Source of the DNA: an uncultured Methanosarcinales archaeon
Lineage (GTDB): Archaea > Nanobdellota > Nanobdellia > Woesearchaeales > DSVV01
Assembly: GCA_964390375.1 (NCBI GenBank)
Contig: CAYMIF010000003.1
Location: 1-63,474 of the forward strand
DNA length: 63,474 nt
Direction of reading: 5' to 3'
A program made the position numbers and the translations under genes. The notes below the pieces were generated by a model, which did not search any database, was not told where the DNA came from, and saw only the letters and a program-made list of their open reading frames with translations. Shown here one piece after another: positions 1 to 36,757 of this stretch (its first letter is position 1; each line of letters opens with the position of its first letter).

Positions 1-3000
1 ACGTCAGGTTCCGGCACTCAGAAACCTCAAAAGCCCCGCACCCAGTCACGAACGTAGGCGGAGTCGGATCGAACACAGCATCATCGAAGTCCGATGCACA
101 GTCAGTGAACCAAAGTTCGATATCTGCGTTGGTCGGATCCCCTGAGAAATTTGTCGCATTGTAGTTCCCTGTCAGCCTGAGGTATGTTTCTGCGATTGTT
201 ATGTTACCGCCGTCGAGTCCAGTGGTTGTGACGTCCATCGAGGAAATGGCTGAAGTGGTTGCGTTTATATAGACAGAGCCGCCTCCTCCGGATTCACCTG
301 TTGTGCTTATTGCTCCTCTGTTGTCTATTGTTCCGTTGAATAAGATATCTGATGCATGTAGCGCGATCCTTCCGCCTGATCCTCCGCCGTCATTCCCAGT
401 CACATCAGCGGTCCTTGCGCTCAGGTTGCCGTATCCTCTGATATATGTTGCAGCTTCAAGAAGTATGCTTCCGCCGGAAGAGCTGCCCCTCGATGATGCG
501 CTTTGGTTGTTCCCTTTCATGCTGATTGTTCCGTTTACCTCAACATGTCCTGCAGAGATCAGTCTTACCGCGCCGCCGCCGTATGAATCTCCACCTCCGC
601 TTCCGAGTGTAACCGGATATTGCTCTGATCCGTATGTCGAAGCAGGGTTATCCCCTCCTCTGCCAGCATGGGCTCCTCCTTCAAGATCACTCCCCGCTCC
701 TGGTCCGTAATTATTCGCATATCCGCCTCTATAGCCGTCGATCCAGCCGTCGATAGTTATGTTCCCTGTTGCGTTTATCGACACTCCATAATTAGGAGGG
801 CTTGTATGGTTGTATCTTGGGCCCACACCGAACTTGGTGCCTCTGGGGATCACAAAATCACCCAGTATCGTATAGTTATTTGCTTCAAGGCCGATTGTGC
901 CGTTCACAGTCCAGTCGCCGGGATAAGTAAGGTTGTCTATTGTTCCCAGAGGGCTGCTGAAAGAGAAAGTTCCTGCCCTGCCAAGATATCCGTTCTCATA
1001 CTCACTGTATCCATCTGAGTCGACAGTATCCGACTTTCCGCCGGCAGCACTGATGATGCCAGTATATCCATATGAATTGAAATTTACCCTTATTCTTCCG
1101 CCGCCACCTGCACCGCTTGTGACTGTGCTTCCACCATCAGCAGCCAGGATTCCTTTTCCGGTTATATTATCTCCATAGAGCCATATGCTTCCGCCTGATC
1201 CGCCTGCTCTGGCTGCATTGTTGGTAAAGGAACTCATGTTGACTGTGCCGTCTATCCTGATAGTTCCTGGATCAGATCTGATCTTGATTGCAGAGCCTCC
1301 ATAATTGACATTCGAATCGCTTGAACCGCCCATCCCAAGGCTTGTCGGACCGGATGCATTTCCATATATGTCAGGTATTTGCTGGTCAGGCCCTCCTCCT
1401 TTTCCACCGTGTGAAGCGCCTGCAAAAGCGTTCGCGCAGACTCCTCCGCAGCAATTATCCATGAACCCAAGCCCGATTCCGTCGATCTCTGAATCTTGGC
1501 CTATTGTCACATTGCCCTGGCTGTTCCAAGACTGTCCCTGGCCGTATGGAGTGAGGTTGCCCATGACTCCCCAGAAATCCTGGTGCCTGGCATCGCCGTA
1601 GACCTTCACAGTCCCGTTCATGACAGCAATATCCCCGGACACATTCCACTCCTGTGTCCCCGAGTAGTTCCCGCCGTAATACCCTTCCGCAAACAGCGGC
1701 AGGAAGTATATCGTCCCTGCCCCATACGATGCCTCGACAGTAAACGACGCAAGCTCCTGCGGCATGGTATTGTTCGTCACATTGCAGTCCGCAGTCCCAG
1801 AGCCGTTGAACACCACATTTTCCCCTGCAACCGGCACATGCCCCAGCGACCAGCAGCTGCTGTCATTGAATGTCCTTGTCGCGCCGTTGCATACCCAGTT
1901 GTTCACCCCGCCTGAGAACGAGACATTATGTATGTAGTCCCTGCTCACGTTCACATAGGCCACATCCTCTCTTCCTGCAGATGTTGTATTGATGGTATAG
2001 TTAGATGTATCATATTTGTCTGTATAGTTCCAGTAGAATTCAAGAAGCGGCTGGGTATCGATGAATCCGCTGGCATCTGTCAGCACGCTGAAAGCCCATG
2101 TCCTGTTTTCGAATGCTGCTGTCACATTCGCTCCATTCACAGCAAGTCCGTCTGAGGTCACATTCACGTCCAGGTAATTGTAGTTGTAGATGGTTATATT
2201 TCCGTTATTAATAGTCGCATTCGTCTCGTTCCATGTTACATTATATAGTCTTAGATGGCTCGCATCATCTATGGAGCTTGTCAGGATATCGTCACCCATT
2301 ACAGAATTGACAATTGAGTTGTATATGCTTATGTTATAGCTTCCTGAAGAGATATATATTGCCTCTGTACCTGCAGCCAGGGTCGTGATATTGGAATTAT
2401 TGACGATCGCCTCGATACTGTTTCCGCTGTAGAATCTCAGTCCATATGAATCCCCTCTGACAACCATATCATTGTTGTCGAAGACATTGTCATCAGCATC
2501 ATCTCTTATGTACATGCCGATTGACATGCTACCATCCACATCTAAAGAATTATTTACGATAGTATTGTTATGGGATTGGTCTGTGAAATAGATGCCATGC
2601 GACCATCCGCTGCCGGTAGTTGTGATGTTGTTGTTGAATACATTGTTGTTCTCGCTCTCGGATATTTCCAATGCAGATGACCAACCTGTTGGGCTGGTGC
2701 TGTCGATGATGTTGTCTGTGATGTTATTGTTGTCTGATTTGATGAGTCCAAGCACATTAGCTCCTGGCTTGCCGGATGTCAGGTTATTGTTCCTGAAAGT
2801 CGAATTCGTGATGAAATAAACTCTCAGTCCATTTGTCGAGAAATTGCTGTCCTCGATTGTGATATTATTTGAATATGCCATATAGACTGCGCCGTATTCA
2901 CTGAAATTGACTCCAGTATATTCCGCTGAATTATTGTCGAATATATACAGTATCGGTTTCCCGTCTGCGAGGTTTGTCTGCGGTATGGTCTGGTTCAGGT

Positions 3001-6000
3001 AATCGTATCCAGGATTGCTCTGATAGAAACCAAGCGGGATGCAGCTGTCTGTTGTGATGTTGTTGTTGTGCAATGAGATTTCGTTTGATGCCTCTACAAA
3101 ATAAACGCCCATCGAAGCTCTATCCAAGGTATGTATTGTGTTGTATGTTATATTGGTTCCGGAAAGTTCACCTCTGATTCTCATGCCGTTGGATCCTGCT
3201 ACATTGGTAGTGATATTGTTCCTTGAGACGAACGCATCTCCTGAATCTTCAAGATAAATTCCAAATGAATAGCCGCCAAGGGTTATGATTGTATTGTTGT
3301 ATATCCTTGAGAAATTGGAATAAAGTATCCTCAATCCATAGCTTGAGCTCTCAGCATCCCTACCCTGCAAGATCCTGCAGTCTTCGACAGTTGTGTTGAA
3401 CGAGGTAGAGTTCAGCCCATACCCCTGCGAGCTGTAGCTGTAGTTGATCTCATATCCTGAGCAGTCCAGCGTAACATTCTCAGCAGCGACATTGAAGCAT
3501 GTCCCGGCAGAACTCACATTGTCCGTGAGCTGATACTCCCAGTTCGCAAAGGTCAAATCTCTGCATTCCGATACCAGGAAAGCACCACACCTCGTGACAA
3601 ACGTCGGCGGAGTAGGATCAAACCTAGCATCATCAAAGTCAGAGCTGCAGTCTGAATATTCAAGTCTGATCTCACCGCCGCTGTTGCTTCCGTTCGCAAG
3701 ATATGTACCGGACAATGTCATTAGTGTATCATTCAGTGTTATGTTTCCGCCGTTGTATCCGAATACGCTGACGTTCATTGATGATATGATGCTGTTCGAA
3801 GCATTGATATAAACTGTTCCTCCTGAACCATCATTGTTCCCATCTGAATCCTGACCTCCTATATTATTTATTTGACCGCTGAAATTTATTGATTCAGCAT
3901 GCATAGCTATTCTTCCTCCACCGCCACCTTCTTGTCCAATTCCTCCATTAGCATTAAGTGTGCCATTGCCGGAGATGTTTCCTCCCGCAATAAGCAATAT
4001 GGATCCGCCAGCACCCGCAGCAGAATTCCAGTTTGACCTATAGGTATGCATCAAGATCTCTCCTTCGACAGCGATATTGCCTGGTGTCTCAAGTCTTATA
4101 GCTGATCCACCTGGTCCGTTCTCACCTCCGCTACCTACACTTATCGGATATGTTAGAGAACCATATAGTTCGTCTCCTGAATTCCATCCATGTCCGCCAT
4201 ATGATCCGCCTGTATTTGTACCTCCGTCTCCAGGTCCTGCGAGGGATGGGAAGCCGAGCATATAACCATCGAGAGTGGCTCCTGCTGCAATTGATATATT
4301 ACCTGTTGCATTGATCCAGACTCCTCTTCCATCTGCTGTATTATTGTAGCATACATAGGCTTGATAATCACCTGAATTTCCGTGGCAGTCAGCATATATT
4401 CCTATTTCTGATCCTTCATAGACATTGAAATCACCAGCTATATTCGTGATATTGCCCTCGCCATAATCTCCACCCAGAAGACCTATGCTTCCGTTTAGGT
4501 TCCAGTCGAGCGGCCAGGTATTGTTTGTGAATGTAAATACTCCGAAAGTTGATGTATCAAATCCAGGCATTGTTCTGGTATAGATCTCTCCGTTAAAATC
4601 AGTTGTCTTGAAATCAAACCTTATGTATCCTGAGCCTGCAGATGCCCAGCTTCCACCTCCCTGCACTTTCAGAGTACCGCTTCCTGTGATATTTTCAGCA
4701 TCAAGCCATATGCTTCCGCCTGCACCGGAACGGTCCTGATTACCGTTCATGTCTATTTCCCCTTCTATTTCGATGAAACCATCATCTGTTTTCAATCTTA
4801 TTGCACTGCCTCCGTTTGAAGTTGATCCGCCTGAGCCGATGCTTGTTGGTGCAGTGGCATTTCCATAGAATATTGAGCTGCCCGAATATCCATCACTGGC
4901 ATGTGAAGCTCCGCAGTTGCTGTTGCAGCCTCCAGGCCCTTCGGTTGTTGTGAAGCCAAGGCCTTTACCGTCAATTTTTGCATCCTCTCCCACAGTGATA
5001 TTTCCAGACATCGACTGCCACTCCTGCCCGTGTCCTTCTCCAGTTATATTCCCTGGCTCAGTAGCACTCGAAGTCACATTATGCAGAAAATCCCCATATA
5101 TCTTCATAGTTCCATTAAGCACGCTGATATCCCCGCTCACATTCCAAACCTGCGTACCATCGTTGTTCCCTGTCCAGTCGCCTTCCGCAAACAGCGGCAG
5201 GAAGTATATCGTCCCTGCCCCATACGATCCCTCCACAGTAAACGACGCAAGCTCCTGCGGCATAGTATTGTTCGTCACATTGCAGTCCGCAGTCCCAGAG
5301 CTGTTGAACACTACATCATCTCCGGCGACCGGAACCCTTCCAAGGCTCCAGCACGAGTCATTGTCAAACCTGTTGACTGCTCCGTTGCAGATCCAGTAAT
5401 TGACTCCCACAGGATTGTAGTCGTCCGACAGCGGCAGGAAGTCTGTATTGTTTCCGCAGTCAACGCCTTCTGTGCATCCTGTCATCGTGCTCAGGTTCAA
5501 TGCCTGGTCGCAGAAACCATTGAAGTCAGAATCAAGGCAGTTGTCAGAGAAGCTGCCGGTGCTGTTGGTCCAGTAGTTCCCCCCGATCTCTGTTCCAGAG
5601 GAGTATATCCTTGTCCCTGGCTGCTGCGAAACATTCCAGGTATGGTTGTATATGGTATCTGAGAAACGTATATTTCCATACGTCCCGCTGTTGTTCAGCA
5701 GGTTGTTGTAGAATCGGTTGGGTCCGCTTAAGCCTGAGCCATCCTCAAAATATATGCCTGCCTCAGAATTTCCGTAGATTGTCGAGTTGCTTAGGTTGTT
5801 GAGGTCTGATCTCACTATCCTGATTCCGTATTCATTGTTTGTTGAAGTTATGTTCTCGAAATAATTGCTGTCTGAATTAAAATATACATACAATCCAGAA
5901 CCCTGTACAGAATCAACAGTGATATTTATGAACCTGTTATTTGTATCTGAGAAGAATGCGAATCCGTGGTATGAATCATTGACGAATATGTTAGTAAAAT

Positions 6001-18000: not shown

Positions 18001-21000
18001 TTGTATAGTTGAACATGTACGAGCTGAACTTCTCCATAGAAACGTTCGCACCGCTGTCCACAGACATCCCGCACCAAGAGCCAGCTCGATCAATGCTGAC
18101 ATTGAATTCCATCGAGCTGTTCCCGTACCATGTCCAGTTATATGGCTTGTTGATGGTTATGCCGAGCGGACAGTTTGTCGAATAGAGCGGGTCTGGCAGG
18201 AATGTGCCTGAGCTGAGGTCTGATGAGCAGTCTGTGAACTCAAGCCTGATCACGCCGTCGTTATTTTCGCCTGTTGCATTATAAACTCCAAAAAGCATAA
18301 GATAGGTGTCATTCAATGTGATGTTTCCTCCGTTGTACCCAGTGGTTGTTATGTTCATGATACTGTATATCTCATTGCTGGCATTGGCATATACTGTGCC
18401 CCCTTCTCCAGGGTCACTGCCAGTGCCCCCTCTGTTTAGTATTGTTCCGTTGAAGCTGATGGTATCTGATGAAGTGAGGGCGATTCTCCCGCCTCCTCCT
18501 CCAGACTGGTGGCTGGCGCCCATTCCGCCCCAGTCTCCGCCTCTTGAATATAGGTCACCAGAACCGCTTATGTTCGGTGCATCGATCCATATTGACCCGC
18601 CTGACCCTTGTCCATATGCATCGTCATCCTTTGCATTCATATTTATTGTGCCTTCGATTGCAACCTCTTTGGCAGACTGAAGCCTCAAAGCAGATCCGCC
18701 TCCTTTATAGGATCTGTATATTGTGGCTCCTTTTCCTGGATTGATGGGTCGTGTCTCATTGTCGTATATTGAGTCTGAAGAAGAGCCTCCTTTTCCGCCG
18801 TGTGAAACAGCAGCAGTTGTTACGGTTGTTGGTGGAAGTCCAAGACCTGTTCCGACCATTGTAGAGCCTGATGTGATTACAATCTCTTCAGTTGCATTTA
18901 TCCATACCCCGAACCCATAGGTGGTTGTCTTATAGCAGGTCACGGTGTTCGAACTATTGAAGAAGCAATCGCTGTATATCCATGCATTATGTCCGCTTGT
19001 GTTGAACACTCCATTTACATTTATGATCAACCCTTCGCTGTGGTTTCCGCCAAGAAGTCCTATGTCGTCTGTGAGTGTCCAGTCACCAGGCCATGTGTTG
19101 TTTGTGAATGTCAGTGTTCCTGCATCAGGTCCGTTTTTGGTGTTGGCTGTAGTTCCGGCTGCGACGCTGATTGTGCCTGTAAGGTTCATTGTCGTTCCAT
19201 ACTCGAGCCTTATTCTTCCGCCACCTCCTGTTCTCCACGAGGTTCCGCCTTTTGCATATAGGTTTCCTCCTCCTTTTATCTCATCTGCCTTGAGCCAGAT
19301 AGATCCGCCTGCTCCGCCGTATGCAGTGGACCCTCCGTTCATGTCTATCTCTCCTTCGACTATAAGAAGGTCAGTCGCATGCAGCTTTATTGCTGAGCCG
19401 CCGTCATCTCCTCCTCCACCAGACCCGATAGAGGTCGGTGCTGTTGCATTTCCATAAGGCAGGGTCCAGACAGATGAGCTATCTGTAAAATGTCCCACTC
19501 CCCCATGTGTGCCTCCGCATTGGCTTGAACCATACCCCGGTCCTTCGCGTTCAGGGAATCCCAGTTTCTCTCCATCAAGCTTTGCTGAGCTTCCGATCAA
19601 GATATCTCCTGATACTGATCTCCAATCCTGGCCATGCCCTTCGCCTGAGATATTCCCTGGTTCGCTGGCACTTGATGTTACATTGTGCAGATAGTCGCTC
19701 CATATTTCCATCGTGCTGTTGATGATGGTGATATTTCCGCTAACATTCCACATCTGCGTCCCATCTCCATTTCCTGTCCAGTCGCCTTCAGCAAAGAGCG
19801 GCAGGAACCTGATTGTCCCGGCACCATAAGAGCCTTCAACCGTAAACGAACCCAAATCCTGCGGCATGGTATTGTTCGTCACATTGCAGTCTGCAGTTCC
19901 CGAGCCGTTGAAAACGACATCATCTCCGGCAAGCGGAACCCTTCCCTCGCTCCAGCATGAGCTGTCATTGAACGTCTTTGTTGCGCCATTGCAGGTCCAG
20001 TAGTTGACAATCTCTTCAGAAAGGCTGGAGTTCTCATCCCCAGTATCAGCCACATTCCCTTCCTTATCCTGAGCATATGCGATATACGTATGCTCTCCTG
20101 CGCTGAGGTTGTCGAATGTAACACCAAGGTATTTCGGACTCTGGTTCATGTAAAGAGCCGCGACCTCTTCAGCAGAAAGAGACCTGTTGAACAGCATCAC
20201 GTCATCCACCATTGCCGGATACCTGTACCCGAAATTTGCGCCTGATATGTATGTGTTTGTATCATTCAGTCCGAGTGTTATGTTATGTCCTCCTCCGGCC
20301 TCCAGCCTGCCGTCCACATATAGTGTGATGTTTGTCTCGTTGAACACTCCAACATAATGGTGCCACTCTCTCAGTGGTATTGTCTCATATGTGCACGCGC
20401 CGATATGATGCCAGGAACCAAGCGCAGTGGAGTACCCGTCGCTTGCCAAAAAGCAAGGATATCCCGGGCTGCTGCCCTTGAAGTCAAGAGCATAAAGTTC
20501 CCAGGGATTATCATTTGCAGCATCATTGCAGGGCTTGACAACAATCTTGTAATGACCGCCAGGCCATGAGTTCTTATATGCCCAGGCAGCGACAGTAAGC
20601 TGCGTCGTGAAATTCAGCGACGGAGACTTGTTTATCATGATATTGTTGCTTCCTGAGAAATTCACTGCCTTTCCTATGTATCCGTCGACCTGCACTGCAT
20701 TGCCCTGCGCCTTTCCTGAGTTGTTGTATATCGATGAGTCATAGAACGTTGCATTAGGTTCTGTCGAGTTCACCTCATCCATCCTCATCCAGAGCTTCAG
20801 CGAATTGTCAAAGTCGATGAACACAGACAGGTTGCTTGTGTCATTCGCAGAGACGTTCAGGAATATATCATCTCCTGCCTGTGTCGAGCCGTTCACAGGA
20901 GCTGTGATGAAGCTTATATTAGGCGCAGAGCTGTCTATAGTGATATCCCTGGTCTCTGTGTAATTATAGTTGCCTGAACCATCTTCTGCATATCCATAAT

Positions 21001-24000
21001 AGCTGTATGTTCCAGAATCGAGCCCATGCGTCGAGTTCTTTGTCTGGTTCACATAAAGGTACCATTGTGTTGAATTATACTTCATCAGGTTTGACATGTA
21101 CAGTTGGTTTATCTCGGCATCTGACAGCGGCCTGTCGAATACCATCAGATCATCCACTTTGCCGTCAAGGGGATTATTTGGGCTGGAATCTCTCTTCATG
21201 CCTACTGATCCAGTATCAACTCCTGTAAGATCATCGAACCATGCTGTTTTATCGACTGGTCCAGCCCAATCCACTGTCTCCTTTTTCTCACCATCGACAA
21301 ACAATGCAGGCTCAACGCCATTCTGCCTCAGGCATACGTGCAGCCATTGATTGGATGGTACGCTCTCAGTCAGGTTTATCAGGAAAAGATAATCAGATCC
21401 ATCTCTACATTCGCCGAAGATTGAACTTCCTCCATCCAAAAAGCAAAGGGAGACCTGTTGGGAATTATCTGATGCATCTCCTCCCCAGAAGATACACCCC
21501 GCTCCGTCTGTTGTGCCAGTCTTCATGGCCCATGCGCATATTGTGCCTGTCGTGTCTCCTGCATAACTCTCATCAAAAGAGACATACTGGTTGCTGCCGT
21601 CAAACATCCATGCGCCATCGTGTCTGCCATTAGCAGTATATCCTGTATCAGCATCCGGGGAAAACCCAAAGCTTCCGTTCTGTTCGCTGGCTGAAAGATC
21701 CACTATAAGTGAATCATTCTCACCCAACTCACTTCTGTTGTCAAAATTATACATAAGCACAAGAGAGCCATTATAGAACGTATGGTTTGTCCCGTCCCAG
21801 TTGAATTTCATAGTATCAAGATCAGATGTACTGACGCTGACATTTATCTCGACATTGGTTTCATTCTGGCTGTCCCCGTCATCCGGTGTAGGAGATTCGA
21901 ATTTGATCTCGCCGCTGGCACCCAGGGTAGGATCAATAACATGGTCAAACTCTATCTCGCCAGACACCCTCAGGTCGAATGTATCATTCGTCCCACTAAG
22001 TCCGCTCAGATAAACCTTATATTTTCCATCCTCGCTGACATTCTCAAAAGAAGCGAGGATATCATCATCGTCAGCAAGCAGGACATCAACCGAAGCGCTT
22101 CCATTAGACCTGGCATAGATAGTAATATCCTTATCCGAAGTAAGATTTTCTTCAAAAACAACCCTCAGGTATTCTCCATCAGAAACCTCTGTATAGTTAA
22201 AATCACGTGCTTTTACATAATCATAAACATCAGCCAGATAGCTCCTATTCGAATCAAGCAGTTCTGCTTTCGAGATATCTATTATGATCTCATATCTCTG
22301 TTCAGAGAGATGCGGAACGATCCACTCAAGATAATCCACAAGCCCGTCTGAGTCCAGATCATGCTTCCATGCCTCCACCTCTGTCCTGCTCTGTCCTTCA
22401 ACATGGTATAACTTGATGTTCTCAGCTTTTGCTTCTTTTTCCAATTCTGCATATGAGAGGACTTTCTCGAACCCCATCTCATCAGGAGCAGATACAACGA
22501 CCGTCTTCTTCCTCCCTGACATTTCGCTCACATTGATTGAAGGCCCGGGTGTTTCGTATTCAAGGACATGCAGGGAAGCGTTCAAAGAGATATTGACCTC
22601 CTTTACTTCGAAATCCTGTGCTGCAGCAGCTCTTGGAACAACATCCCTGCCCTTCTGCTTTTTTCTTTCCTCTTCTTTGAGCAGGCTGATACTCCTGACA
22701 CTGCCTCTTCTATCTCCTTCAATTTCTTCTTCGCTTTCCTCTGCCAGGGTTTTTGCTTCTGTCTTCCTCTTCTTCCTGGACACGGCCTTGATCTTCTCCT
22801 GTGCGTCTTTCTTCTCGTCTCCTTCCATGACATAGGCTTTGACTTCGCTTGCATCCCCTGGGATCACCACCATAGCATCGACTGCTTCGCTGCTTTTGAT
22901 GGTATGGCTCCATCTGACCGGCACTCCTGCGATCACATTATAGTCCTTTGCCTGCACAGAGACATTATCTGGCTCAGAAATCGAAGAATAGTTAGTGCTT
23001 GCCAGCACCAGCTCAGGCTCAGGACCGACCACAATCACGCTGAAATTCGCCAGGATAAAATTCTTTGAATCAATGACCGCGATGCTCAGGTTATAGGTTC
23101 CAGCCACAATACCGCTCTTTATGAACATCACATCTTCGCGGATGATTGCCTCAAGCCCGCCGTCTGAATAAACATCATAGAACAGCATCTCTCCTTCAGT
23201 GTCAGAAAAGCTCTCGCTTAGGTTTATCCTGGCGCTGCTGTTAATATCCATTGTGATGTCTGAAACAGATCCGTTCGGTGGTAGATTATAACTGGCATTT
23301 GACAATGTCCCATTCCCTGTGATGTTAGTCATGTTTGCAGGCCAGCTCTGGCTCATGTTCTCAGCTGACAGGTTATCCATGCTTTCATTTATGATGCTTT
23401 GGTTCCCGATTGTCTTGTTCAGCATTGTCTCATTGATAAAAGTCTGGTTCACGAAGCTTTCATTGATAATAGTCTCATCGATAGCTGTCTCATTGATGCC
23501 GGTCTCATTGATATAGCTTTCATTGACAGCTGTCTCATTGAAAACAATCTCATCGACAACACTCTCGTTTTTCAGGCTCTCATTGAGTATGCTCTCATTA
23601 ATACCACTCTCATTGGCTGTCTTATCATCGATTCCAGTATCATTCACAATACTTTCATTGCCGGTAGTCACATTTATGAAACTGAGATTATCAACGCTTG
23701 CGTTCTCAAGGCTTATGTTGCTGATCGTCTGATTTTCAAAGCTCAGATTCTCGATTGTATCATTCCCTGTTTTCAGGTTCAGTGCAGGCGATTCCCCGGA
23801 TGTTAGATTGCCAAGACTGTCATTCACATCCTTCCAGGCATTCGAAAGATTAGCAGAGATTTGGTCAGTCATATTGGCAGCTGTGATATTGTCTATGCTG
23901 TCATTCTCCCAACTCACATTATCCTTGCTTCCATCATCGTCCTGCTCATAATCAATCTTTGTCTGATTTCCTGCACCCTCATCGGCTGAAGTTTTGTTTA

Positions 24001-24607
24001 GGATCTCTTCCTCCTCTAATTTTTTTTCTTCTTCATTCTCGCTTCCTGCTTCTTCCTCTACTACTTCTTCTCCTCCACCCTCTCCGATCTTTTCTCCAGC
24101 ATCTGATTCAAGTTCATAATAGTCGTATTCCACTTCATGTATCCGAAGCACTGTCTCATTGTCCAGGATAGTGATCAGCTGTCCTTTTCCGACCAGCCCA
24201 AGCTCATTATCTGAAACCCCAACATCCAGGAATCGTCCTTCAGATGAATTGAGCACTAGATATTCTTCTCCGTCGAAGACAAGATAGGCTACAGCATTTC
24301 CGTCTCCCTTGACAGTCCCGCTCAGCCTGATTGCAGACACATTCACCTCTCCGAATGAAAGGATTGCCTCTCCTGAGCGGTCGAATGCAAACTGTCCGTC
24401 TTCCAAAACGACCTGGCCGGTTATTCCGCCCTGCATAAAAAAGATTCCTGGCCGAAGAATCAAAAGCAGTATGGCAAGCATGAGTACAGCATTCAGGATA
24501 ACAAGAGCATCGATATGCTTTTCCTTCCTGTGCCCAGAAGTAAAGCTCTCGCTCATTTCAGCCTTCAGCTTTTTCGCCTCATCCTTCTTCTGTTTAGTTC
24601 TTGCCAT
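1..24607 (-). CDS. Giant (>8,200 aa, 3'-partial) membrane-anchored surface protein: 9 LamG/concanavalin-like domains, parallel beta-helix regions, GLUG repeats, Ig-like linkers, 4 Gly-rich modules
   Basis: ATG at 24607 (MARTKQKKDEAKK...), with an in-frame stop just upstream at ~24670. The N-terminal TM helix ALVILNAVLMLAILLLIL is followed by GITGQVV. The same frame reads as coherent protein at spot checks near 24000, 21790, 16990, 10030, 5400 and 1. The ORF track lists no long terminated ORF in this frame, consistent with no stop inside the window. LamG C-terminal motifs (DDVMxFNRxL type) lie near 21140, 20190, 17160, 16250, 15360, 12340, 10310, 9410 and 8440. GLUG-like VGGxxG repeats lie at ~7250-8260. 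Confidence 0.9.
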   Translation of the reverse strand, partial: MARTKQKKDEAKKLKAEMSESFTSGHRKEKHIDALVILNAVLMLAILLLILRPGIFFMQGGITGQVVLEDGQFAFDRSGEAILSFGEVNVSAIRLSGTVKGDGNAVAYLVFDGEEYLVLNSSEGRFLDVGVSDNELGLVGKGQLITILDNETVLRIHEVEYDYYELESDAGEKIGEGGGEEVVEEEAGSENEEEKKLEEEEILNKTSADEGAGNQTKIDYEQDDDGSKDNVSWENDSIDNITAANMTDQISANLSNAWKDVNDSLGNLTSGESPALNLKTGNDTIENLSFENQTISNISLENASVDNLSFINVTTGNESIVNDTGIDDKTANESGINESILNESLKNESVVDEIVFNETAVNESYINETGINETAIDETIINESFVNQTFINETMLNKTIGNQSIINESMDNLSAENMSQSWPANMTNITGNGTLSNASYNLPPNGSVSDITMDINSSARINLSESFSDTEGEMLFYDVYSDGGLEAIIREDVMFIKSGIVAGTYNLSIAVIDSKNFILANFSVIVVGPEPELVLASTNYSSISEPDNVSVQAKDYNVIAGVPVRWSHTIKSSEAVDAMVVIPGDASEVKAYVMEGDEKKDAQEKIKAVSRKKRKTEAKTLAEESEEEIEGDRRGSVRSISLLKEEERKKQKGRDVVPRAAAAQDFEVKEVNISLNASLHVLEYETPGPSINVSEMSGRKKTVVVSAPDEMGFEKVLSYAELEKEAKAENIKLYHVEGQSRTEVEAWKHDLDSDGLVDYLEWIVPHLSEQRYEIIIDISKAELLDSNRSYLADVYDYVKARDFNYTEVSDGEYLRVVFEENLTSDKDITIYARSNGSASVDVLLADDDDILASFENVSEDGKYKVYLSGLSGTNDTFDLRVSGEIEFDHVIDPTLGASGEIKFESPTPDDGDSQNETNVEINVSVSTSDLDTMKFNWDGTNHTFYNGSLVLMYNFDNRSELGENDSLIVDLSASEQNGSFGFSPDADTGYTANGRHDGAWMFDGSNQYVSFDESYAGDTTGTICAWAMKTGTTDGAGCIFWGGDASDNSQQVSLCFLDGGSSIFGECRDGSDYLFLINLTESVPSNQWLHVCLRQNGVEPALFVDGEKKETVDWAGPVDKTAWFDDLTGVDTGSVGMKRDSSPNNPLDGKVDDLMVFDRPLSDAEINQLYMSNLMKYNSTQWYLYVNQTKNSTHGLDSGTYSYYGYAEDGSGNYNYTETRDITIDSSAPNISFITAPVNGSTQAGDDIFLNVSANDTSNLSVFIDFDNSLKLWMRMDEVNSTEPNATFYDSSIYNNSGKAQGNAVQVDGYIGKAVNFSGSNNIMINKSPSLNFTTQLTVAAWAYKNSWPGGHYKIVVKPCNDAANDNPWELYALDFKGSSPGYPCFLASDGYSTALGSWHHIGACTYETIPLREWHHYVGVFNETNITLYVDGRLEAGGGHNITLGLNDTNTYISGANFGYRYPAMVDDVMLFNRSLSAEEVAALYMNQSPKYLGVTFDNLSAGEHTYIAYAQDKEGNVADTGDENSSLSEEIVNYWTCNGATKTFNDSSCWSEGRVPLAGDDVVFNGSGTADCNVTNNTMPQDLGSFTVEGSYGAGTIRFLPLFAEGDWTGNGDGTQMWNVSGNITIINSTMEIWSDYLHNVTSSASEPGNISGEGHGQDWRSVSGDILIGSSAKLDGEKLGFPEREGPGYGSSQCGGTHGGVGHFTDSSSVWTLPYGNATAPTSIGSGGGGDDGGSAIKLHATDLLIVEGEIDMNGGSTAYGGAGGSIWLKADEIKGGGNLYAKGGTSWRTGGGGRIRLEYGTTMNLTGTISVAAGTTANTKNGPDAGTLTFTNNTWPGDWTLTDDIGLLGGNHSEGLIINVNGVFNTSGHNAWIYSDCFFNSSNTVTCYKTTTYGFGVWINATEEIVITSGSTMVGTGLGLPPTTVTTAAVSHGGKGGSSSDSIYDNETRPINPGKGATIYRSYKGGGSALRLQSAKEVAIEGTINMNAKDDDAYGQGSGGSIWIDAPNISGSGDLYSRGGDWGGMGASHQSGGGGGRIALTSSDTISFNGTILNRGGTGSDPGEGGTVYANASNEIYSIMNITTTGYNGGNITLNDTYLMLFGVYNATGENNDGVIRLEFTDCSSDLSSGTFLPDPLYSTNCPLGITINKPYNWTWYGNSSMEFNVSIDRAGSWCGMSVDSGANVSMEKFSSYMFNYTNSSMPDSGYNVVFSCNDTSDNWGYTGFDYFFVDTVNPNISIIEPDGRYVTADDYVVTNVSANDTANVSMVLDWDSSLVSWWRMDELNSTGDVVDYMGRNNGSVSGDAAQTDAGYFGRGFEFIDNGDSIVVTDNDVLDLNLSGTISLWAKNKGNCTSSNGGTPTETGNCFIIYKGSGQAATDYAYFLRHESDEDVVFYLGNGTTGRSASVGSIPRKVWHHYLVTWNSTNISLYIDGDFKDDSAMLNQIKNSNYDLKIGAGGHYTDGWDTHFNGTIDDVMIFNRTLSEDEVIALYANQSDKYLDLNITGLSSGNHTITAYAQDRAGNINITSRVAERDNTDPIVNVESPLNDSWYNSSMVVINVSSSEEGNGSLVLNLENSLVSWWTMDSLNNSGDPQDIMGRNNGTRHGNARAVPGKLGKGFEFDGSYDAINVSNDPSFNITEELTLSAWFYNTKSSYSSPDDFPKLIIRPYPSFSAPFELYALSFSGGGDTLRFLISNQTKTTRWIQQDGGNIETYRWYHAAATFNGTNMTLYIDGTYNQSTSFSPFEIGTNGSGVFIGSRGESRNDFQGIIDNVMIFNRSISADEVMSIYNATSYLYTANFSEGGHELEAYTVDLAGNLGETGPMDFYLDTVNPNISIIEPYSGYATTDDFVFVNVSANDTSNVSVFVDWDDSLVSWWRMDELNASGDVVDHMGRNNGSVSGDAAQTDAGYFGKGFYFDGDNDAVIFGSDDSLDSIANFTLSAWYKPARDGSSQEEVIFNKYEEKMLEWDWNMVGFQQAAFRGIVDFGAGTNAIAVSEAIPYSYTEESWNSVQVWYHVVMTYNTDTKNVSLYINGTETNYNSRTTGVGTEDYQNSEDLRMGTNVFGNFDTMGTIDDAMLFNRTLSAEEVAGLYANQSSRYLGANMTGLSDGTYTFTAYAQDRAGNVNRTDEQSAEIASGGFVNYWNCSGGTQNFTNASCWSQGRVPIATDNVIFNGSGTADCNVTNNTMPQDLGSFTVEGSYGAGTIYFLPLFAEGYYGGNYSGTQEWNVSGDIAVLNGTVEVWGDYLHNETSSAHGPGNLTAEGAGQGWNSISGNINIGEDAVLDGAGLGFGTRAGPGYDKSEGDSASHGGFGGERGSFTPDPYGNATGPTSLGSATDSREGGSAIKLTGTIINISGEIDMDGIAGSDSGAGGSVWLLADNITGNGFVHARGGATTIGYGAGAGGRIRFGYLKNLEFDGNISLASRTTGSEPGTHGTLTFTNNTWPKDMTLTGDIGLLGGDFGDGNVTNIRGNLDLNGYDIKIYGDCFGNSGQYKAFVCYNTTTEGSGVWLNVTGNITIPGGSTISGSETGFPSTKGAGPGSSSTGACHGGIGADNGCQPYGSLTSPVALGSGGQGTNGGAAIKLETDETVLINGSIYANSRTYGHTGSGGSIWVSGETVSGNGTISAIGANTNIGYNSGAGGRVAIWGDVVNFTGDINAYSRTSGSEPGDGGTVFINASSRIETSIEIDAYGSQKGGNITLNDSLLIISGDYNATGGSSDGVIRLEFSDCSSDFSAGTFNPDPFYSTNCPLIITINKPVNWSWYANSSMDFNVSVDRAGSWCGMSVSGGANVSMEKFSSYMFNYTNGSMPDDSYHVVFSCNDTSDNWGYTGFDYFFVDTVNPNISIIEPSSGYATTDDFVFVNVSANDSSNVSVFVDWDDDLLLWMRMDDVNSSGDPQDYTERHNGTRNGGWNPGPGGPNQVDSGYMGKAFEFDGDDDWIDLGNDTSLIPIYGTIAAWVYAYDYARGINVIFTGEFGGNSDRHPYFYVDTDGDAVLSISNGTTFDSDNFDTNLSTDTWIHLAVTWNGTDKVLYVNGSRIFNASQDLIPIARTANPPGDTSRIGDLSGSFTEEWNGKIDDVMIFNRSLEDNEISAIYAGQNSVYLGVNFSSLSEGNHTFTAYAQDRAGNVNATDSQDAELNFSEISECTELSMPNKLYYLTQDLYTNVTCIVISADNVTLEGRGYSITGNNTDCGEDFGIHAGGQVNVTIKDFENISYFGDYDACGDRDGAGIFLDGTNGSRIYNISAYENWKGVKLEQAYDNMIYDCNLSSNADDGAGIYYGENNTFDNITMDLNGNDGIYLSRTGNNTIIRSNFSSNVDEGVTFYLSPNNTVSDCRFVAHKKGIYIVASWNNTLQSNYINDSTDGIYMYSSGTGGNTSYNIVKDTEIENSARTDVYFWTDDPGSGNIENMFYNASFSSDYFNNSLDGGPSHYVRLWYYRAYVNDTEGNSLGGINVSGYNSTGDIQFSELTYPSGWTDSVSVIDYINNNGSIAYFSEYLINASNSSYDAQQHSYNITSSENIMSDVFTLDNAIPTADANSPSNNSYWNSSIIEFDVNASDYNNVSLFVDIDDSLVSWWRMDDLNATGGVVDYMGRTNGTPSGDSGQTEGMFGKGFSFDQDGDMINLTNTTALHVYNFTIAAWVWKNEAGTQGIFADDVRGLNGNWELFIYSGTEVGTMWYAPDSVALKSSTRLENETWYHIAGTYDGNNISIYINGQLENTTTTTNTVDYSGDRVPGIGAVNTNWGWGNGMNGTIDDVMLFNRSLSAEEIAGLYANSSSKHVIVNVSDFSEGEHHYTAYSQDLSGNVAESGRADFNVDTVNPNISFVDVTIGDGSMIGDDFVFVNVSANDTNNVSVFVDFDSSLVFWMRMDELNSSGGVVDYLNRNNGSAIGDAIQTDSGYFGRGFDFDGDGDSIDIGDVDFDEGLDGLTVSLWAYAKSNYSDSGSNQYFISRYGAGPDVFYMWWEANGDLEVDFMVWNGTSTGQGTHDVGIPESEFNKWHHLVGVYNGTNVLLYVDNELGTKSQGPLTGKTNTGATNPLRIGNGVDNRDFNGTIDDVMIFNRSLSSEEVAALYANQSRRYEGLNYTDLSDGSHSFTAYAQDRAGNVNTTETRDVEVDTINPDIAFVWPTNANDSTEGDIIVNVSANDTSNVSVVVDLDGTLVSWFRLENNVWDYMGNNNKSTNWLKGNAEYASGKLGRGVELDGANDTVQINSTNGLTNASGTIMFWFRRDGYHNINAGSTDRNYVFSHFCWPDCRGTRQITGSSVSDRVYIYFNATDDDMYAYMQQYSIADSYSEHIANVGLGEWHHVALTYTNDTANPINGSYEVYLDAEHMATGIFNKSMLKWWYTLDFGGWDGSHRDWNNPIWNDPGEEFNGTVDDILIFNRSLEPDEIAAVYANGSSRYAYIDYDDNLTQGNHTFKAYAQDLAGNLNWTETRVTKLVTSNITSCEELQEMNQDLTESYSLGANVDCTFDTQDPAGALYNGGAGFEPIGNNTHQFTGTLEGNGYSITGLAINRPSRTYVGLFGYTSSAVNISNVELLDVDITGNWSTGSLVGYNDGGTVKNCNVTGIVNCDGNMAGGLMGYNDGFVGNCSADVYVNNSDDTNDAGGLIGQSHDNGVVNDSYALGNVSGGFWNVGGFIGKDFGVTSRCYAAGNVTSSGHNVGGFDGKARRRAKIDCYTTGTVTSTIVSHDTTNYYIGGFAGYAESGTISHSYATGDVVGGNANYTAGFIGYVQGAYDGINYSFADNNVSGNNEVSGFIAWFDDTITQLDNVWWNNHSGNPDHCWWNETGDYDTECNAIEDDSDYFKGDVYPGSEPMANWSFYSVWSEVEDEYPQLTLQGAGGQFADNATYELFDVPPTTDFNEITDMYNVCNATVAINDTARIDWLSCIDARGNDFDSHVLLNHNYIKVNTSFLDESLNSSANITMYWVNLSNPAVLVDGEVCRECYMISNDANNVTFNVTHFSNYTLAENISGCRNFTQPGVYLLNDSIIDSGVPYCMNISADDVWLDCQGHSVDSDGTALDGIYVYRSAETDSNVTVVNCNVSDWGNHNIYIRNADNVTLINITTSGSGDGVETYNGDYMTAIGLTSIDNFNGIQIRYSNHVTINDSVIANNTYRDISISGTSCDHEINNVTGTDNKPIVYFDEAVSIDSWNNNFSQMILCNADGSSVNNVTMSHTDIENNDIMLRGVDNSNFTNIFVNDSYHGFAFFSDTNNRFINITVDSVQGSGLYVYFNSDSNYFENITSTNNEYGIRIVRSDLNNLSNSTIYGNSEAGIYFEDGSGLSGPNRFYNNLLNNSGTYGNIRFSDTIYNHTWNVSQQPGTRIYSSGTEIGGNYWTNSTGSFSDNCLDSDFNGFCDQALNLSTMTGCTEGVDCGNNTDFLPLSDDYNPVGVNYWICNGAVNRFDNDSCWSLGRVPVAGDDVVFNSSGTADCNVTNNTMPQELASFTVEGSYGAGTIYFLPLFAEGDWTGNNDGTQVWNVSGDISVLNGTMKIYGDFLHNVTSSATEPGNITGEGHGQEWQSMSGNITVGEDAKIDGKGLGFTTTEGPGGCNSNCGASHASDGYSGSSIFYGNATAPTSIGSGGSTSNGGSAIRLKTDDGFIEIEGEIDMNGNQDRSGAGGSIWLDAENITGSGTLKVQGGGSWASAGSGYIRFDFKTTDFNGEIYTRTMPGFDTSTFGVFTFTNNTWPLDWNLNGSIGLLGGDYGEGNITNIAGDFNVYEGSEIGIYADCHGNSGDYQAYVCYNNTADGRGVWINATGNISIAAGATLDGYMLGFPSLAGPGDGGTNTGGSYGGHGWNSGDELYGSLTYPISVGSGGENGPGGSAIRLETPGNIAVEGEILMHTYRSNWNSAAGAGGSILLIAGGNISGNGTLNANGGIGQEGGGGGRIAMHAESINFSGQINNIGGQDSDGNNDGSGGTVYINASNSIISSMNVSVFGYNGGNITLNDTLMTLSGTYLANGSNSGGEIRLEYSDCSSDFDDARFDPTPPTFVTRCGAFLVSECRDLTFANWEYQLTDNVSSAGTCFNVAAENVTLDCSGYEINYSYSSQGYGLNSTSFNTTVEDCRILQGRDAESSSYGLRILYSNFSRIYNNTIITLGGYSFGIYLEDSGDAFVSRNNITTNVAGSNGMRIRGELSGTNITYNTIHTLDRASMGVYFVEASNEISLHNNNITTDSCIPLGFYQSNPGYDYLNQTIPQTNLADGKPILYIFDNNSAEYTGVNFSEYGAVYMAYSNNITIEDSNFSTNGLRVYFITNSTFRNNNLTSGKPGANVLGLIKSDNNNITDNIIDSTSPTGWSSALEISESENNNVFNNNITTTGSGWSHGIYFTDQSHNNTIVNNSLDVDGSMSIGMYIRDDADDNVFDNNDMVVRGDSYGLRFYSGNSIEAIVNNSNITTLAAGTEAIYISSGSYNISIYNSIVNSVMGDDILTSSIDDASHLRLYNVTWNETNATINNGNITIYNYNYLDVNVTSDGLAVNGANVTAAFENRTWAFSVLTDASGFIDTQPLLEFYWNYTDKYDTSNYTINTTSAGREDVAYVNVSRDYIHNVSFSGGVNNWVCNGATRTFNDSSCWSLGHVPVAGENVVFNGSGTADCNVTNNTMPQELASFTVEASYGAGTIYFLPLFAEGYYGGNYSGTQEWNVSGDIAVMNGTVKVYGDARHQDFWGVMGNLTPYGQGQSWNSQGNVTIGQDSEIDGIGLGFMDNCCGGVCANAFAGASHGGKGGGPDQQIPDIYGNASGPTSLGMGGSSDSNVNYGGSAIKIRSDPGTIRIDGTVNMSSFTNNAARAGGSGGSIWLYGDNITGKGILAADGGSTVTSGAGGGGRIRVNFNSYGYTGIISAAGGKSDTVDSDGYSEYENGYLGRAGTFSFSSPLGTIDNLTYPGDWTVNGTIGLEANNYTILGDFVIPRGTKFGVGPRYNHTSPPNYGVSINATGNITIDGWIDGYRGGYANNYGPGAGSDLEGGAHAGRGGDNPASTYGSEQYPVTLGSGGGDSYGGGAVRLISAGHVEVNGTISMKGNNQSASSRGSSSGGSILLEAATYIRGYGNLSARTADVTGNDGGGSGGRIALHASDILFNGTIDNRGAISTTGESGGGGSVYINATTSAISSMDVTTTGLDGGNITIAETYLRLTGNYNATNFSGDPTNADIELWFTDCASDFDDAVFDPTPPTFVTGCGAFEVSECRNLT
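12954..13372. repeat. Near-identical intragenic repeat (mosaic of 15984-16113 and 17871-18196)
   Basis: 13047-13144 matches 17871-17968 with 1 mismatch in 98 nt, and homology continues to ~13372/18196. 12954-13083 matches 15984-16113 with only a few mismatches. Confidence 0.85.
23345..23764 (-). repeat. 28 x 15-nt degenerate tandem repeat encoding N-x-S/T-x-x pentapeptides
   Basis: Hand translation gives NDTIE NLSFE NQTIS NISLE NASVD NLSFI NVTTG NESIV NDTGI DDKTA NESGI NESIL NESLK NESVV DEIVF NETAV NESYI NETGI NETAI DETII NESFV NQTFI NETML NKTIG NQSII NESMD NLSAE NMSQS. Confidence 0.9.
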
Positions 24608-25136
24608 GTTTTCCTCTTTTCTTGCACGCGCGGCTATAGCAGGTCCACACGGTCCTTTGGTCTCTGTTCATGCATTCGCCGATCTCAGAATATCGAAGGC
24701 CGGCTTCTTCTTTGAGGTATACGACGCATATTTCCAATACCCCGAGATTTTTGTTCCCGAAAATCTCTGTAGGGAGGAAATATTCGCCGCCGCTCACCCG
24801 GATCCTTCTGTGTTGTTTGGATGCGGCCTTGTGGTAGACCGTCCAGATGAGCTTGTTGTCGCGAAAGAGGATGTCAGCGATCTCCCGGAAAGGAAGATCG
24901 CGGTTCTCCCGGAGGTACTTGACAATGCACTCCAACGTGCCAAGTTTGTTGTCAGAAAAGATTGAGACCGGGATTTGAAGGGTCTCCTCATCCTCTTTCT
25001 GGATATGGGAGATGTCTCTTCTGATCTCGAATATCTCGCTTTCAAGCTTCAGAAGTGAATTTTGCAGCAGTTCAAGCCTTTGAGAACTAGATTTATGTCT
25101 ATTTTTCCCTCTCCCTATACCCTTCTTTGTGCGCAC
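24594..25136 (-). CDS. Tandem helix-turn-helix DNA-binding protein
   Basis: Two similar units: LGTLECIVKYLRENRDLPFREIADILFRDNKLIWTVYHKA and LGVLEICVVYLKEEAGLRYSEIGECMNRDQRTVWTCYSRA. It overlaps the giant gene start by 14 nt. The start codon (GTG) is uncertain. Confidence 0.8.
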   Translation of the reverse strand: MRTKKGIGRGKNRHKSSSQRLELLQNSLLKLESEIFEIRRDISHIQKEDEETLQIPVSIFSDNKLGTLECIVKYLRENRDLPFREIADILFRDNKLIWTVYHKAASKQHRRIRVSGGEYFLPTEIFGNKNLGVLEICVVYLKEEAGLRYSEIGECMNRDQRTVWTCYSRACKKRGKHGKN

Positions 25137-25170
25137 TTTTCTGACTAAAAAACGTTTTTTACTAATTATG

Positions 25171-25397
25171 TAAGTAATGACTATTTAAAGCTTTCGTTTT
25201 TTTAGACGATAATTAGAGAGGGGCAGTTTCAAATTATCTTACCAAATATGAAAATAAACATACAGATTCAAATCAAATAAGTAAAAAACAAAACCAAGTA
25301 AGTATAATAATTATTAATTTAATATCAAATAAGTATTTAAGAGAAAAAAATAATATTAAATAAGTAAAAAATGCATTAATAATCAACTAAGTAAGTA
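25171..25397. promoter_or_regulatory. AT-rich upstream region with phased TAAGTA hexamers
   Basis: TAAGTA starts at 25171, 25278, 25299, 25330, 25361 and 25392 (plus an overlapping copy at 25388). Spacings are 107, 21, 31, 31, 31. Confidence 0.45.
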
Positions 25398-25502
25398 TTA
25401 AAATCAAGAAGGCTCAAGCTAGGTTCAGATGACAAAAAATCAAGCAAAAAATAGCATCAGAAAAAGAAGATAAACAAGATGGCTGTCGCTTTTTGTTTTA
25501 TC

Positions 25503-25625
25503 GGCTATTATGAAATCCTATCCTACTTCACCGATGTTTCACATCGGTTCCGCCTGGCCACGAGAATATTTACTAATGTAAATATTCTCTCTCATGGCAC
25601 AGACGGCTAGGATTTCATAATAGCC
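25503..25625 (-). mobile_element. MITE-like element (structured element copy 1)
   Basis: Perfect 18-bp terminal inverted repeats GGCTATTATGAAATCCTA (25503-25520, 25608-25625). Perfect 9-bp flanking direct repeat TGTTTTATC (25494-25502, 25626-25634). Internal hairpins, no ORF. Confidence 0.8.
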
Positions 25626-25692
25626 TGTTTTATCATTAGATTTAAAAAGTCATCAACAGAAATAGTCTCAAAAGAAAAAACAGGAAAAAATT

Positions 25693-25962
25693 TTACTCTT
25701 CTTCGTCCTGGTTATAGTTTGGCACAGCAGACTTCGATATTATCATGATGTCTCCGATAGCCTTGACCAGCTGGTGAGGGACGATAACTCCTTTTGCCGA
25801 CCCCAGGATCCTGTTCAGGTATGAGTTTTTCGTAGATTTCACTCTCCACCCGAACACTTTGTTTGCTGTGAGTATTGACTCCTCGACATCCCCGAAGTAT
25901 TCACCTGAATCTGTGAATACTCTCATGTCATATGATTCAGTGATCTTTTTCATATTAAGCAT
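25693..25962 (-). CDS. PRC-barrel domain protein
   Basis: MLNMKKITESYDMRVFTDSGEYFGDVEE...IVPHQLVKAIGDIMII is the archaeal PRC-barrel pattern. Start moved from 26070 to the ATG at 25962. Confidence 0.8.
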   Translation of the reverse strand: MLNMKKITESYDMRVFTDSGEYFGDVEESILTANKVFGWRVKSTKNSYLNRILGSAKGVIVPHQLVKAIGDIMIISKSAVPNYNQDEEE

Positions 25963-26030
25963 AGTGAATCCCTCCGATATTGAAGATAAGTAAATTTTTA
26001 TAAGTATATAAATTTTTCCGTTGAAACAGC

Positions 26031-26780: not shown

Positions 26781-26848
26781 CCAGAAATCTGCTGTTTCTC
26801 AAATTGAAAAATCAAAAGAAAGATAATAATAAAAAAACGAACATATTA

Positions 26849-36631: not shown

Positions 36632-36757
36632 AAGAAATCACATATAAGTCTGATTGAGTTTCTCTTGGACTTGGCATTGGTTTATAAACTTTACTGTCCT
36701 CTACATGTATAGGCAGGCATAGTTTTAAATACAACTAAAAGTTTAACCTGCTCGACT

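Follow-up and report, generated by a model that had tools for sequence, protein, structure and literature searches.

Is a reading frame that stays open for more than 8,200 codons, up to the very end of its contig, one real gene, and what might its product do? The question is raised by contig CAYMIF010000003.1 (assembly GCA_964390375.1), deposited under the name of an uncultured Methanosarcinales archaeon. The window analysed here is this contig in its entirety, 63,474 bp. Six-frame analysis of the window revealed a minus-strand frame from 24667 to 2 with 8,222 codons and not a single stop, which runs off the left edge; the next-longest open stretch has 909 codons. We consider it very probable that this frame is a real surface-protein gene, referred to below as the giant gene. 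As read from the sequence, it is an unbroken gene of a Woesearchaeota-type DPANN archaeon, and its product is predicted to be a membrane-anchored surface protein. Directly upstream lies a small gene, here called HTHx2, whose product carries two helix-turn-helix (HTH) units.

The first start codon of the giant open reading frame (ORF) is an ATG at 24607, preceded by GAGG at a distance of 6 nt, and another ATG follows at 24556. Counted from the ATG at 24607, as are all residue numbers given below, the visible part of the protein has 8,202 aa, a mass of at least 882 kDa and an isoelectric point (pI) of 4.15. In its two remaining forward frames, the same DNA has 17–51 stops per 500 codons, so several hundred stops would be expected if the giant frame were non-coding, and chance is excluded. 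The initial annotation, which had reported a single ORF of more than 8,200 aa, open over at least 24.6 kb and running off the edge, was right on each count: 8,202 aa follow the ATG, translation meets no in-frame stop in the 8,222 visible codons, and the edge is the end of the contig, a fact the annotation had no means of recognising. Because the window is the whole contig, there is no neighbouring stretch to continue into, and the C-terminus, cut off by the contig end, is not recoverable. ORF listings omit frames that run off a sequence end, which explains why the giant ORF is absent from the ORF track. A search with the last 400 aa of the visible protein found no relative in 185,579 species-representative GTDB genomes or in JGI metagenomes.

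A gene of this kind invites the suspicion that it is a chimera, or a collapsed assembly of repeated modules taken from shorter genes or different strains. It is indeed built from repeated modules, and the contig ends inside the fourth copy of a Gly-rich module, a position typical of assemblies that break in repeats. In addition, just a 2.9-kb piece of the neighbourhood was recovered in the independent Logan assembly of run SRR7048225. This Logan contig (2,875 bp) is 100% identical to 25598–28472, which tells us that the SRR7048225 sample holds the window's organism; it is the sole public match of the DnaG-like neighbouring gene, and it ends in an AT-rich spacer, short of HTHx2 and the giant gene. 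However, the frame stays open over 8,222 codons and through every module junction, which would be rare for a chimera. The internal repeats have diverged in DNA (exact repeats extend to ~68 nt at most, and identity in the best pairs is 94% for one of 139 nt and 81% for one of 545 nt), and the window contains no second, near-identical copy of the contig's terminal 600 nt. Independent assemblies, one of them a complete chromosome, also contain relatives with ORFs of 3,400–5,900 aa that share this architecture. Judged by these sequence features misassembly of the gene is unlikely, and we give a chimeric or collapsed frame very little credence.

A diversity-generating retroelement was also considered and rejected for the visible part, given that the mismatches in the repeat pair of 139 nt are not adenine-specific. 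No reverse transcriptase was found among the window ORFs scanned.

Anatomy of the giant protein

The membrane anchor, nine LamG domains, beta-helix blocks, GLUG region and four Gly-rich modules listed in the initial annotation were all reproduced by Pfam, hidden Markov models (HMMs), hydropathy and self-comparison. All features described in this section are encoded on the minus strand. The protein starts with a basic tail, predicted to be cytoplasmic (aa 1–33, 24509..24607), which begins MARTKQKKDEAKKLK; short basic tails of this type also occur in the downstream proteins of three related loci (L006, L009 and L014). It is followed by a single transmembrane (TM) helix or signal anchor (aa 34–56, 24440..24508). 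Nowhere else in the 8,202 aa does a Kyte-Doolittle scan show a strong hydrophobic segment; the one found here spans aa 29–63, with a value of 2.81. A small unannotated domain separates the anchor from an acidic low-complexity stalk (aa ~191–460, 23228..24037) that is dense in N-x-S/T sequons, with 30 of them in aa 200–400. Over the whole visible protein 428 sequons are observed where 140 are expected from composition, approximately a threefold excess. The single N-terminal TM helix, the sequon excess and the pI of 4.15 together lead us to place the protein at the cell surface.

The next region of the ectodomain (aa 461–1002, 21602..23227) is unannotated, without a match in Pfam, NCBIfam or the PDB; aa ~600–1050 are 41–51% identical to a giant protein of the Woesearchaeota chromosome OY970338.1. 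From there on, lectin-type and solenoid-type blocks follow. LamG domains 1–2 (aa 1003–1167 and 1318–1483, 20159..21601) precede the first copy of the Gly-rich module (aa 1536–2150, 18158..20002). LamG domains 3–5 (aa 2325–2492, 2626–2790 and 2922–3093, 15329..17635), joined by Ig-like Big_13 linkers, precede the second copy (aa 3147–3760, 13328..15169). LamG domain 6 (aa 3939–4098, 12314..12793) and a first right-handed beta-helix block of the Beta_helix/NosD type (aa ~4233–4392, 11432..11911) follow. LamG domains 7–9, again with Big_13 linkers (aa 4623–4776, 4914–5076 and 5209–5400, 8408..10741), complete the lectin-type set. The GLUG region (aa ~5459–5730, 7418..8233; Pfam E 7e-15) has three GLUG motifs, located around aa 5702–5727. 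Towards the contig end we find a second Beta_helix/NosD block (aa ~6170–6351, 5555..6100), the third Gly-rich copy (aa 6404–7020, 3548..5398), a third beta-helix block, with NosD (aa ~7219–7355, 2543..2953), and the fourth Gly-rich copy (aa 7570–8202, 2..1900), which is truncated by the contig end.

The LamG count is exactly nine when an HMM is built from the Pfam-supported copies within the protein. Pfam Laminin_G_3 (PF13385) matches with E values of 1e-19 to 1e-45 and scores of 69.7–155.3 bits per 900-aa piece, well past its gathering threshold of 27.6 bits. Other parts of the protein are less familiar. The N-terminal region and the Gly-rich modules belong to no NCBIfam family, and sequence searches of the PDB with the Gly-rich module, the GLUG region and the N-terminal region gave zero matches. 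Pfam scans detected no ATPase domain in aa 1–8202, and neither a beta-barrel translocator nor a two-partner secretion (TPS) domain in the visible protein.

The Gly-rich module deserves separate mention. Its four copies of ~620 aa are 46–56% identical to the first copy in self-comparison and share a near-invariant opening stretch, FNGSGTADCNVTNNTMPQ...SFTVEGSYGAGTIYFLPLFAEG. By sequence, the module is without a relative in Pfam, NCBIfam or the PDB. An AlphaFold2 model built with 15 aligned sequences (pLDDT 83.7, pTM 0.88) is all-beta, with short strands in triplets, and on this model the module is a predicted beta-solenoid. Foldseek found no significant neighbour in the PDB (best E 0.38, TM ≤0.27); the non-significant matches are nearly all right-handed beta-helix proteins, among them adhesin passengers (Ag43, EspP, EtpA and HMW1), phage tailspikes and polysaccharide lyases.

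The module is rare. We collected 34 database matches, approximately eight of them strong (P0319–P0326), and eight JGI loci (L072–L079), and the matches lie mostly on short contigs, as fragments of larger genes. One is labelled 'Candidatus Nealsonbacteria', a lineage of candidate phyla radiation (CPR) bacteria; the contig may be mis-binned, or the module may have been transferred between episymbiont lineages.

A double-HTH partner and its cassette

HTHx2 (24594..25136, minus strand) encodes 180 aa from a GTG, the single possible start codon of its ORF. It lies directly upstream of the giant gene on the same strand, and its stop overlaps the ATG of the giant gene by 14 nt. The product has a long N-terminal helix and two tandem HTH units resembling region 4 of sigma-70, which correspond to two copies of ~55 aa with the consensus 'IPxSIF..LGxLE..VKYLKE...EIA..L.RD.RTIW..Y..A.KK'. 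Upstream of the gene is an AT-rich intergenic region of ~550 nt (25137..25692, minus strand) with a TATA-like 'ctttaaatag' ~45 nt before the HTHx2 start, and it is the probable promoter of an operon formed by HTHx2 and the giant gene. Beyond this spacer, which is unusually long, a gene for a small PRC-barrel protein (89 aa, Pfam E 1.8e-4) is found at 25693–25962 on the minus strand. The initial annotation, sound on the anatomy of the surface protein, had overlooked the conserved HTHx2 gene.

The AlphaFold model of HTHx2 (pLDDT 88.8) shows the long N-terminal helix and two small helical units. Taken singly, these units superpose on sigma-70 region 4, at 0.6 Å over 45 residues for SigR, and also on SigF, SigE and SigW bound to −35 DNA. 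The NCBIfam sigma models score the window's HTHx2 far under their cut-offs. A family HMM of 25 members, the window's own copy included, detects one HTHx2 gene in the window, with E 2.7e-66. No record of the exact HTHx2 protein was found in public assemblies.

Is the pairing with a surface protein peculiar to this contig? An exhaustive HMMER search of 1.84 billion representatives returned 1,998 representative relatives of HTHx2. Among the top 150, 27 are proteins of 1,000–5,919 aa, nearly all with the HTHx2 domain at or near the C-terminus; the long relatives that were scanned have LamG domains, beta-helix domains or both, or else the Gly-rich module. We also retrieved 70 genomic loci with an alignment of six HTHx2 sequences, and all of them come from Woesearchaeota-, Pacearchaeota- or Nanoarchaeota-type metagenome-assembled genomes (MAGs), a few of which bear the label 'Methanosarcinales' or just 'archaeon'. 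Where HTHx2 stands alone, a same-strand ORF of at least 150 aa is found downstream within ±150 nt in 49 of 57 evaluable loci, and 47 of these 49 ORFs encode a cytoplasmic tail and an N-terminal TM helix. The overlap between stop and start has a median of 4 nt and amounts to 14 nt, as in the window, in seven loci. With enough flank to judge (42 loci), 18 downstream ORFs reach at least 1,000 aa, and several exceed 3,300 aa and are cut by the 10-kb flank.

The pair also occurs as one polypeptide. HTHx2 is fused to the C-terminus of LamG/beta-helix proteins of 1,500–5,900 aa, in the order N-terminal cytoplasmic helical domain, first TM helix, ectodomain, 'G.WTI', short hydrophobic segment, poly-Lys/Arg stretch and HTHx2, an order that, with the short hydrophobic segment as a C-terminal membrane anchor, would leave both protein ends in the cytoplasm. 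P0008, P0173, P0179 and L074 all combine LamG/beta-helix or Gly-rich modules with a C-terminal HTHx2. The complete 3,456-aa protein of L074 unites a Gly-rich module of the window's type, three LamG domains and a C-terminal HTHx2, and it thereby connects the window's two genes directly, in the manner of a 'Rosetta-stone' gene fusion. Our search of the literature, limited in scope, found no description of a cassette of HTHx2 and a surface protein; this cassette or fusion, as well as the Gly-rich solenoid module, appear to be undescribed.

We define here, as an operational family, 'Woesearchaeota-type HTHx2-linked giant surface proteins' by four features, three of which are seen in the giant protein: the tail with TM helix, the module set, and an HTHx2 that is either fused at the C-terminus or, as in the window, encoded upstream with an overlap. 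The fourth, a C-terminal 'G.WTI' with a short hydrophobic segment and a poly-basic stretch, followed or not by HTHx2, is seen in the fused relatives and would lie beyond the contig end in the window.

Several MAGs, such as OY970338.1, BM511 and SRP214966_co3_191, have two or three cassettes; on chromosome OY970338.1 two of them are in tandem. The downstream proteins of such paralogous cassettes in related genomes range from 160 to more than 3,300 aa. Many relatives have an N-terminal cytoplasmic helical domain of ~65–95 aa before the TM helix, with a motif like 'G(R/K)T.EEWI.YYD.YI' (L004, L008, L010, L011, L012, L015 and L018; downstream ORFs of L002, L016, L023, L034 and L071). This domain could be a docking site for HTHx2. 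The window's giant protein has its short basic tail in place of it.

A viral or mobile origin of the cassette was rejected: no HTHx2 relatives were found in IMG/VR, and there is no adjacent transposase domain.

From its modelled fold and its genomic context, HTHx2 most likely serves the giant surface protein as its dedicated DNA-binding regulator, or partner, in the cytoplasm. The arrangement recalls extracytoplasmic function (ECF) sigma/anti-sigma pairs and membrane-bound one-component regulators of the ToxR/CadC type: directly upstream of a gene for a single-pass membrane protein, most of which lies outside the cell, a small two-unit HTH protein is encoded, and the two genes are translationally coupled. 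The short cytoplasmic N-terminus of the membrane partner is similar too, and the fused forms of HTHx2 resemble membrane-tethered transcription factors. In contrast to ECF sigma factors, however, HTHx2 has no sigma-2 domain, both its units being region-4-like, and it is paired with a giant adhesin-like protein in place of a small sensor. We know of no sigma factors in archaea. The likeness is thus one of gene organisation and does not amount to membership.

By analogy with ECF sigma/anti-sigma pairs or with membrane-tethered factors of the ToxR or Notch type, HTHx2 and the giant adhesin might form an archaeal contact-sensing switch, a speculative and rather unlikely possibility. If it were true, the cytoplasmic end of the surface protein would tether HTHx2 to the membrane, covalently in the fused forms and non-covalently in split forms such as the window's, and binding of a host cell by the ectodomain would alter the activity of HTHx2. 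Each gene for a surface protein would then have its own cognate regulator, by which attachment could be coupled to expression, or adhesin variants could be switched.

Adhesin, enzyme or envelope component

What could such a protein be for? With moderate confidence, we read the giant protein as a glycosylated, modular adhesin fibre of lectin-type and beta-solenoid domains with a dedicated HTH partner. Sequence and structural models together describe a type-II-anchored, putatively extracellular, sequon-rich protein with nine lectin-fold domains and long predicted beta-solenoids, co-encoded with a double-HTH protein. The short basic N-terminal tail would stay in the cytoplasm, and the one TM helix visible in the sequence would anchor the protein. 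The remainder would be exported and, judging by the threefold excess of sequons, heavily N-glycosylated. The four Gly-rich modules, the three beta-helix blocks of the pectate-lyase type and the GLUG region would act as rigid spacers of an ectodomain fibre that, with its Ig-like linkers, displays the nine LamG/ConA-like domains. These domains may bind glycans on another cell or surface, which would result in multivalent adhesion to a host or partner. The last step draws on the domain families and on previous work, in which LamG and giant surface proteins of DPANN archaea were proposed as mediators of host recognition (PMC10266531); we infer a host-attachment role for the giant protein from its sequence on the same grounds. 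HTHx2, translationally coupled through the 14-nt overlap, would be the first gene of the two-gene cassette and the giant gene the second.

Several points weigh against the adhesin reading. Glycoside hydrolases and lyases, too, can have LamG and beta-helix folds. No host is known for the window's organism, and a free-living existence is possible for some Woesearchaeota. Past the end of the contig, the protein could have a catalytic, toxin or ATPase domain, or a second anchor. As for the partner, the window's HTHx2 scores 19.7 bits with Pfam Sigma70_r4_2 (PF08281), under the cut-off of 25.7, and its whole model gives weak Foldseek matches (best E 0.023), among them ECF sigma factors and the bipartite DNA-binding domain of Tc3; we infer DNA binding from the fold alone.

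The first of these points leads to an alternative in which the giant protein is mainly an enzyme, that is, a surface-tethered polysaccharide degrader that uses its LamG domains as carbohydrate-binding modules and attacks a host envelope or environmental polymers. The Beta_helix/NosD blocks have the pectate-lyase fold, tailspike depolymerases and fucoidan/alginate lyases are among the structural neighbours found for the Gly-rich module, and there are weak sub-threshold matches to GH16, sialidase and M26-peptidase-N. Genes of glycan metabolism (GH57-GT5, phosphorylase) also lie nearby. Nevertheless, no catalytic family scores over threshold in the giant protein, the GH16 and sialidase matches are below cut-off and fall under the LamG domains, and the Foldseek matches of the module are themselves not significant (best E and TM as given above). 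We regard a mainly enzymatic protein as improbable.

To the same low degree we would credit a structural part of the cell's own envelope, such as an S-layer-associated scaffold or a protective glycocalyx like halomucin, that does not bind any other cell. A protein that is membrane-anchored, acidic and sequon-rich would suit such a role, and so would the many paralogous cassettes of related genomes, with their wide spread of lengths (160 to more than 3,300 aa), and the lack of a known host. On the other hand, nine lectin-type domains and adhesin-like beta-solenoids suit ligand binding better than a lattice, and a mosaic ectodomain that is only 28–51% identical to the giant proteins of the related loci retrieved fits a diversifying interaction surface.

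A secretion conduit of the kind proposed for the nanohaloarchaeal SPEARE proteins, in which the ectodomain would bind the host while a C-terminal VirB4/TraG-like ATPase would drive effector transfer, is suggested by the comparable size, the DPANN origin and the loss of C-terminus and downstream gene beyond the contig, and is most improbable, since Pfam detects no ATPase domain in the visible 8,202 aa and the complete C-termini of relatives end in a TM helix with a basic tail, in HTHx2 or in no recognisable anchor, and not in an ATPase.

The adhesin reading can be set beside three groups of known proteins. Closest are giant proteins of Woesearchaeota, Pacearchaeota and Nanoarchaeota (ORFs of OY970338.1, L072, L074, P0179 and P0191), which share its vocabulary of LamG, Big_13, Beta_helix/NosD and Gly-rich modules, the N-terminal cytoplasmic tail with TM helix, and an HTHx2 either just upstream or fused at the C-terminus. 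The set of LamG (PF13385), Big_13 and Beta_helix/NosD found in the giant protein is present in P0179, L072 and L074 as well. The complete 1.84-Mb chromosome OY970338.1 encodes ORFs of 4,739 aa and more than 3,208 aa, the JGI contigs L072 and L074 encode more than 5,200 aa and 3,456 aa, respectively, and P0191 has 5,919 aa. Database names of these relatives say only 'LamG-like jellyroll fold domain-containing' or 'right-handed parallel beta-helix repeat-containing'. The window's protein, with 8,202 or more residues and four Gly-rich modules, exceeds every relative retrieved (5,919 aa at most), and its identity to them is patchy, at 28–51%.

SPEARE proteins are comparable in size. SVXNc_0300 has 9,409 aa and BNXNv_0298 has 8,880 aa (PMC10266531; Hamm et al. 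2019 as cited there), the former length being that of the longest protein of cultivated archaea (PMC10266531). They resemble the giant protein in their DPANN origin, a size of ~9,000 aa, a pI of ~4, a membrane-bound ectodomain of repeated beta-rich domains and a proposed role in host interaction (PMC10266531). They differ in having Ig-like and WD40-like domains, a cytosolic VirB4/TraG-like ATPase and a second ATPase gene downstream, a combination that the visible part of the giant protein does not show. Furthermore, no HTHx2 partner is described for SPEARE, and the window's organism, unlike the nanohaloarchaea, is no halophile. Among the homologue matches that bear a name, none is from Nanohaloarchaeota. 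The giant protein is SPEARE-like in its proposed mode of action but not demonstrably a SPEARE.

Bacterial beta-helix adhesins (Ag43, EspP and UpaB; EtpA, HMW1 and FHA) offer a looser parallel, that of a long beta-solenoid serving as a rigid, extended adhesive stalk. They possess a barrel translocator or a TPS domain, whereas the giant protein belongs to a single-membrane archaeal cell, is anchored by a TM helix and has no significant match to them.

Giant surface proteins of DPANN archaea are already known, and the window's gene is a large new example and a new Woesearchaeota variant. Host recognition by DPANN archaea is largely unexplained, and giant surface proteins, described mostly in Nanohaloarchaeota, are the main candidates; the locus reported here adds a Woesearchaeota example near the upper size limit of archaeal proteins. 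The association of HTHx2 with surface proteins gives a handle on how these archaea regulate, or signal through, such proteins, and both this association and the ~620-aa Gly-rich solenoid module are now open to testing.

The organism and the rest of the contig

The DPANN assignment made by the initial annotation agrees with the neighbouring genes. Topoisomerase VI subunit B is 94% identical to a relative on a JGI contig, 76% to that of the Woesearchaeota chromosome OY970338.1 and 70–73% to named Woesearchaeota/Nanoarchaeota proteins, which gives a range of 70–76% to proteins of these two groups. Other archaeal genes of the contig encode a DnaG-type Toprim protein, a RIO kinase, a KH protein, topoisomerase VI subunit A and an archaeal prepilin peptidase. 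The neighbouring proteins are basic, with a pI of ~9, and this ruled out an origin from a halophile (Nanohaloarchaeota). Many third-party annotation (TPA) bins that contain the cassette are likewise labelled 'uncultured Methanosarcinales archaeon' (e.g., L007, L014, L019–L021, L024, L027, L034, L035, L041 and L047), and this label may be wrong for such Woesearchaeota-like bins.

The 'small genome' assumed by the initial annotation is small in relative terms only: the median Woesearchaeales genome has 1.4 Mb (bioRxiv 10.64898/2026.05.13.725050), and the nearest relative with a complete genome has 1.84 Mb. The visible giant gene alone would take up ~1.7% of the median genome.

Three ORFs of the contig are without a Pfam family: 28902–30578 on the plus strand (558 aa), 33147–33839 on the minus strand (230 aa) and 61581–63077 on the minus strand (498 aa), the last being coiled-coil-like. 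At 41910–44251 (minus strand) two tandem genes of 368 and 412 aa each end in the mobile domain of phosphoenolpyruvate (PEP)-utilising enzymes, with no other recognised domain.

Glycogen-type carbohydrate genes and several radical-SAM proteins are also encoded. At 33908–38470, a gene for a 907-aa fusion of GH57 with a starch-synthase-type GT5 adjoins a glycogen-phosphorylase-like gene, which suggests that this reduced genome provides for the turnover of glycogen or starch. The radical-SAM genes are five in number, at 44308–45750 (minus strand) and within 48961–54295; four are clustered in ~5.3 kb, and one encodes 755 aa with two radical-SAM domains. They may constitute a peptide- or cofactor-modification cluster. 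Finally, a tRNA of 100 nt lies at 63294–63393 on the plus strand (Rfam 50.4 bits). It was missed by ARAGORN in bacterial mode and is probably an intron-containing archaeal tRNA.

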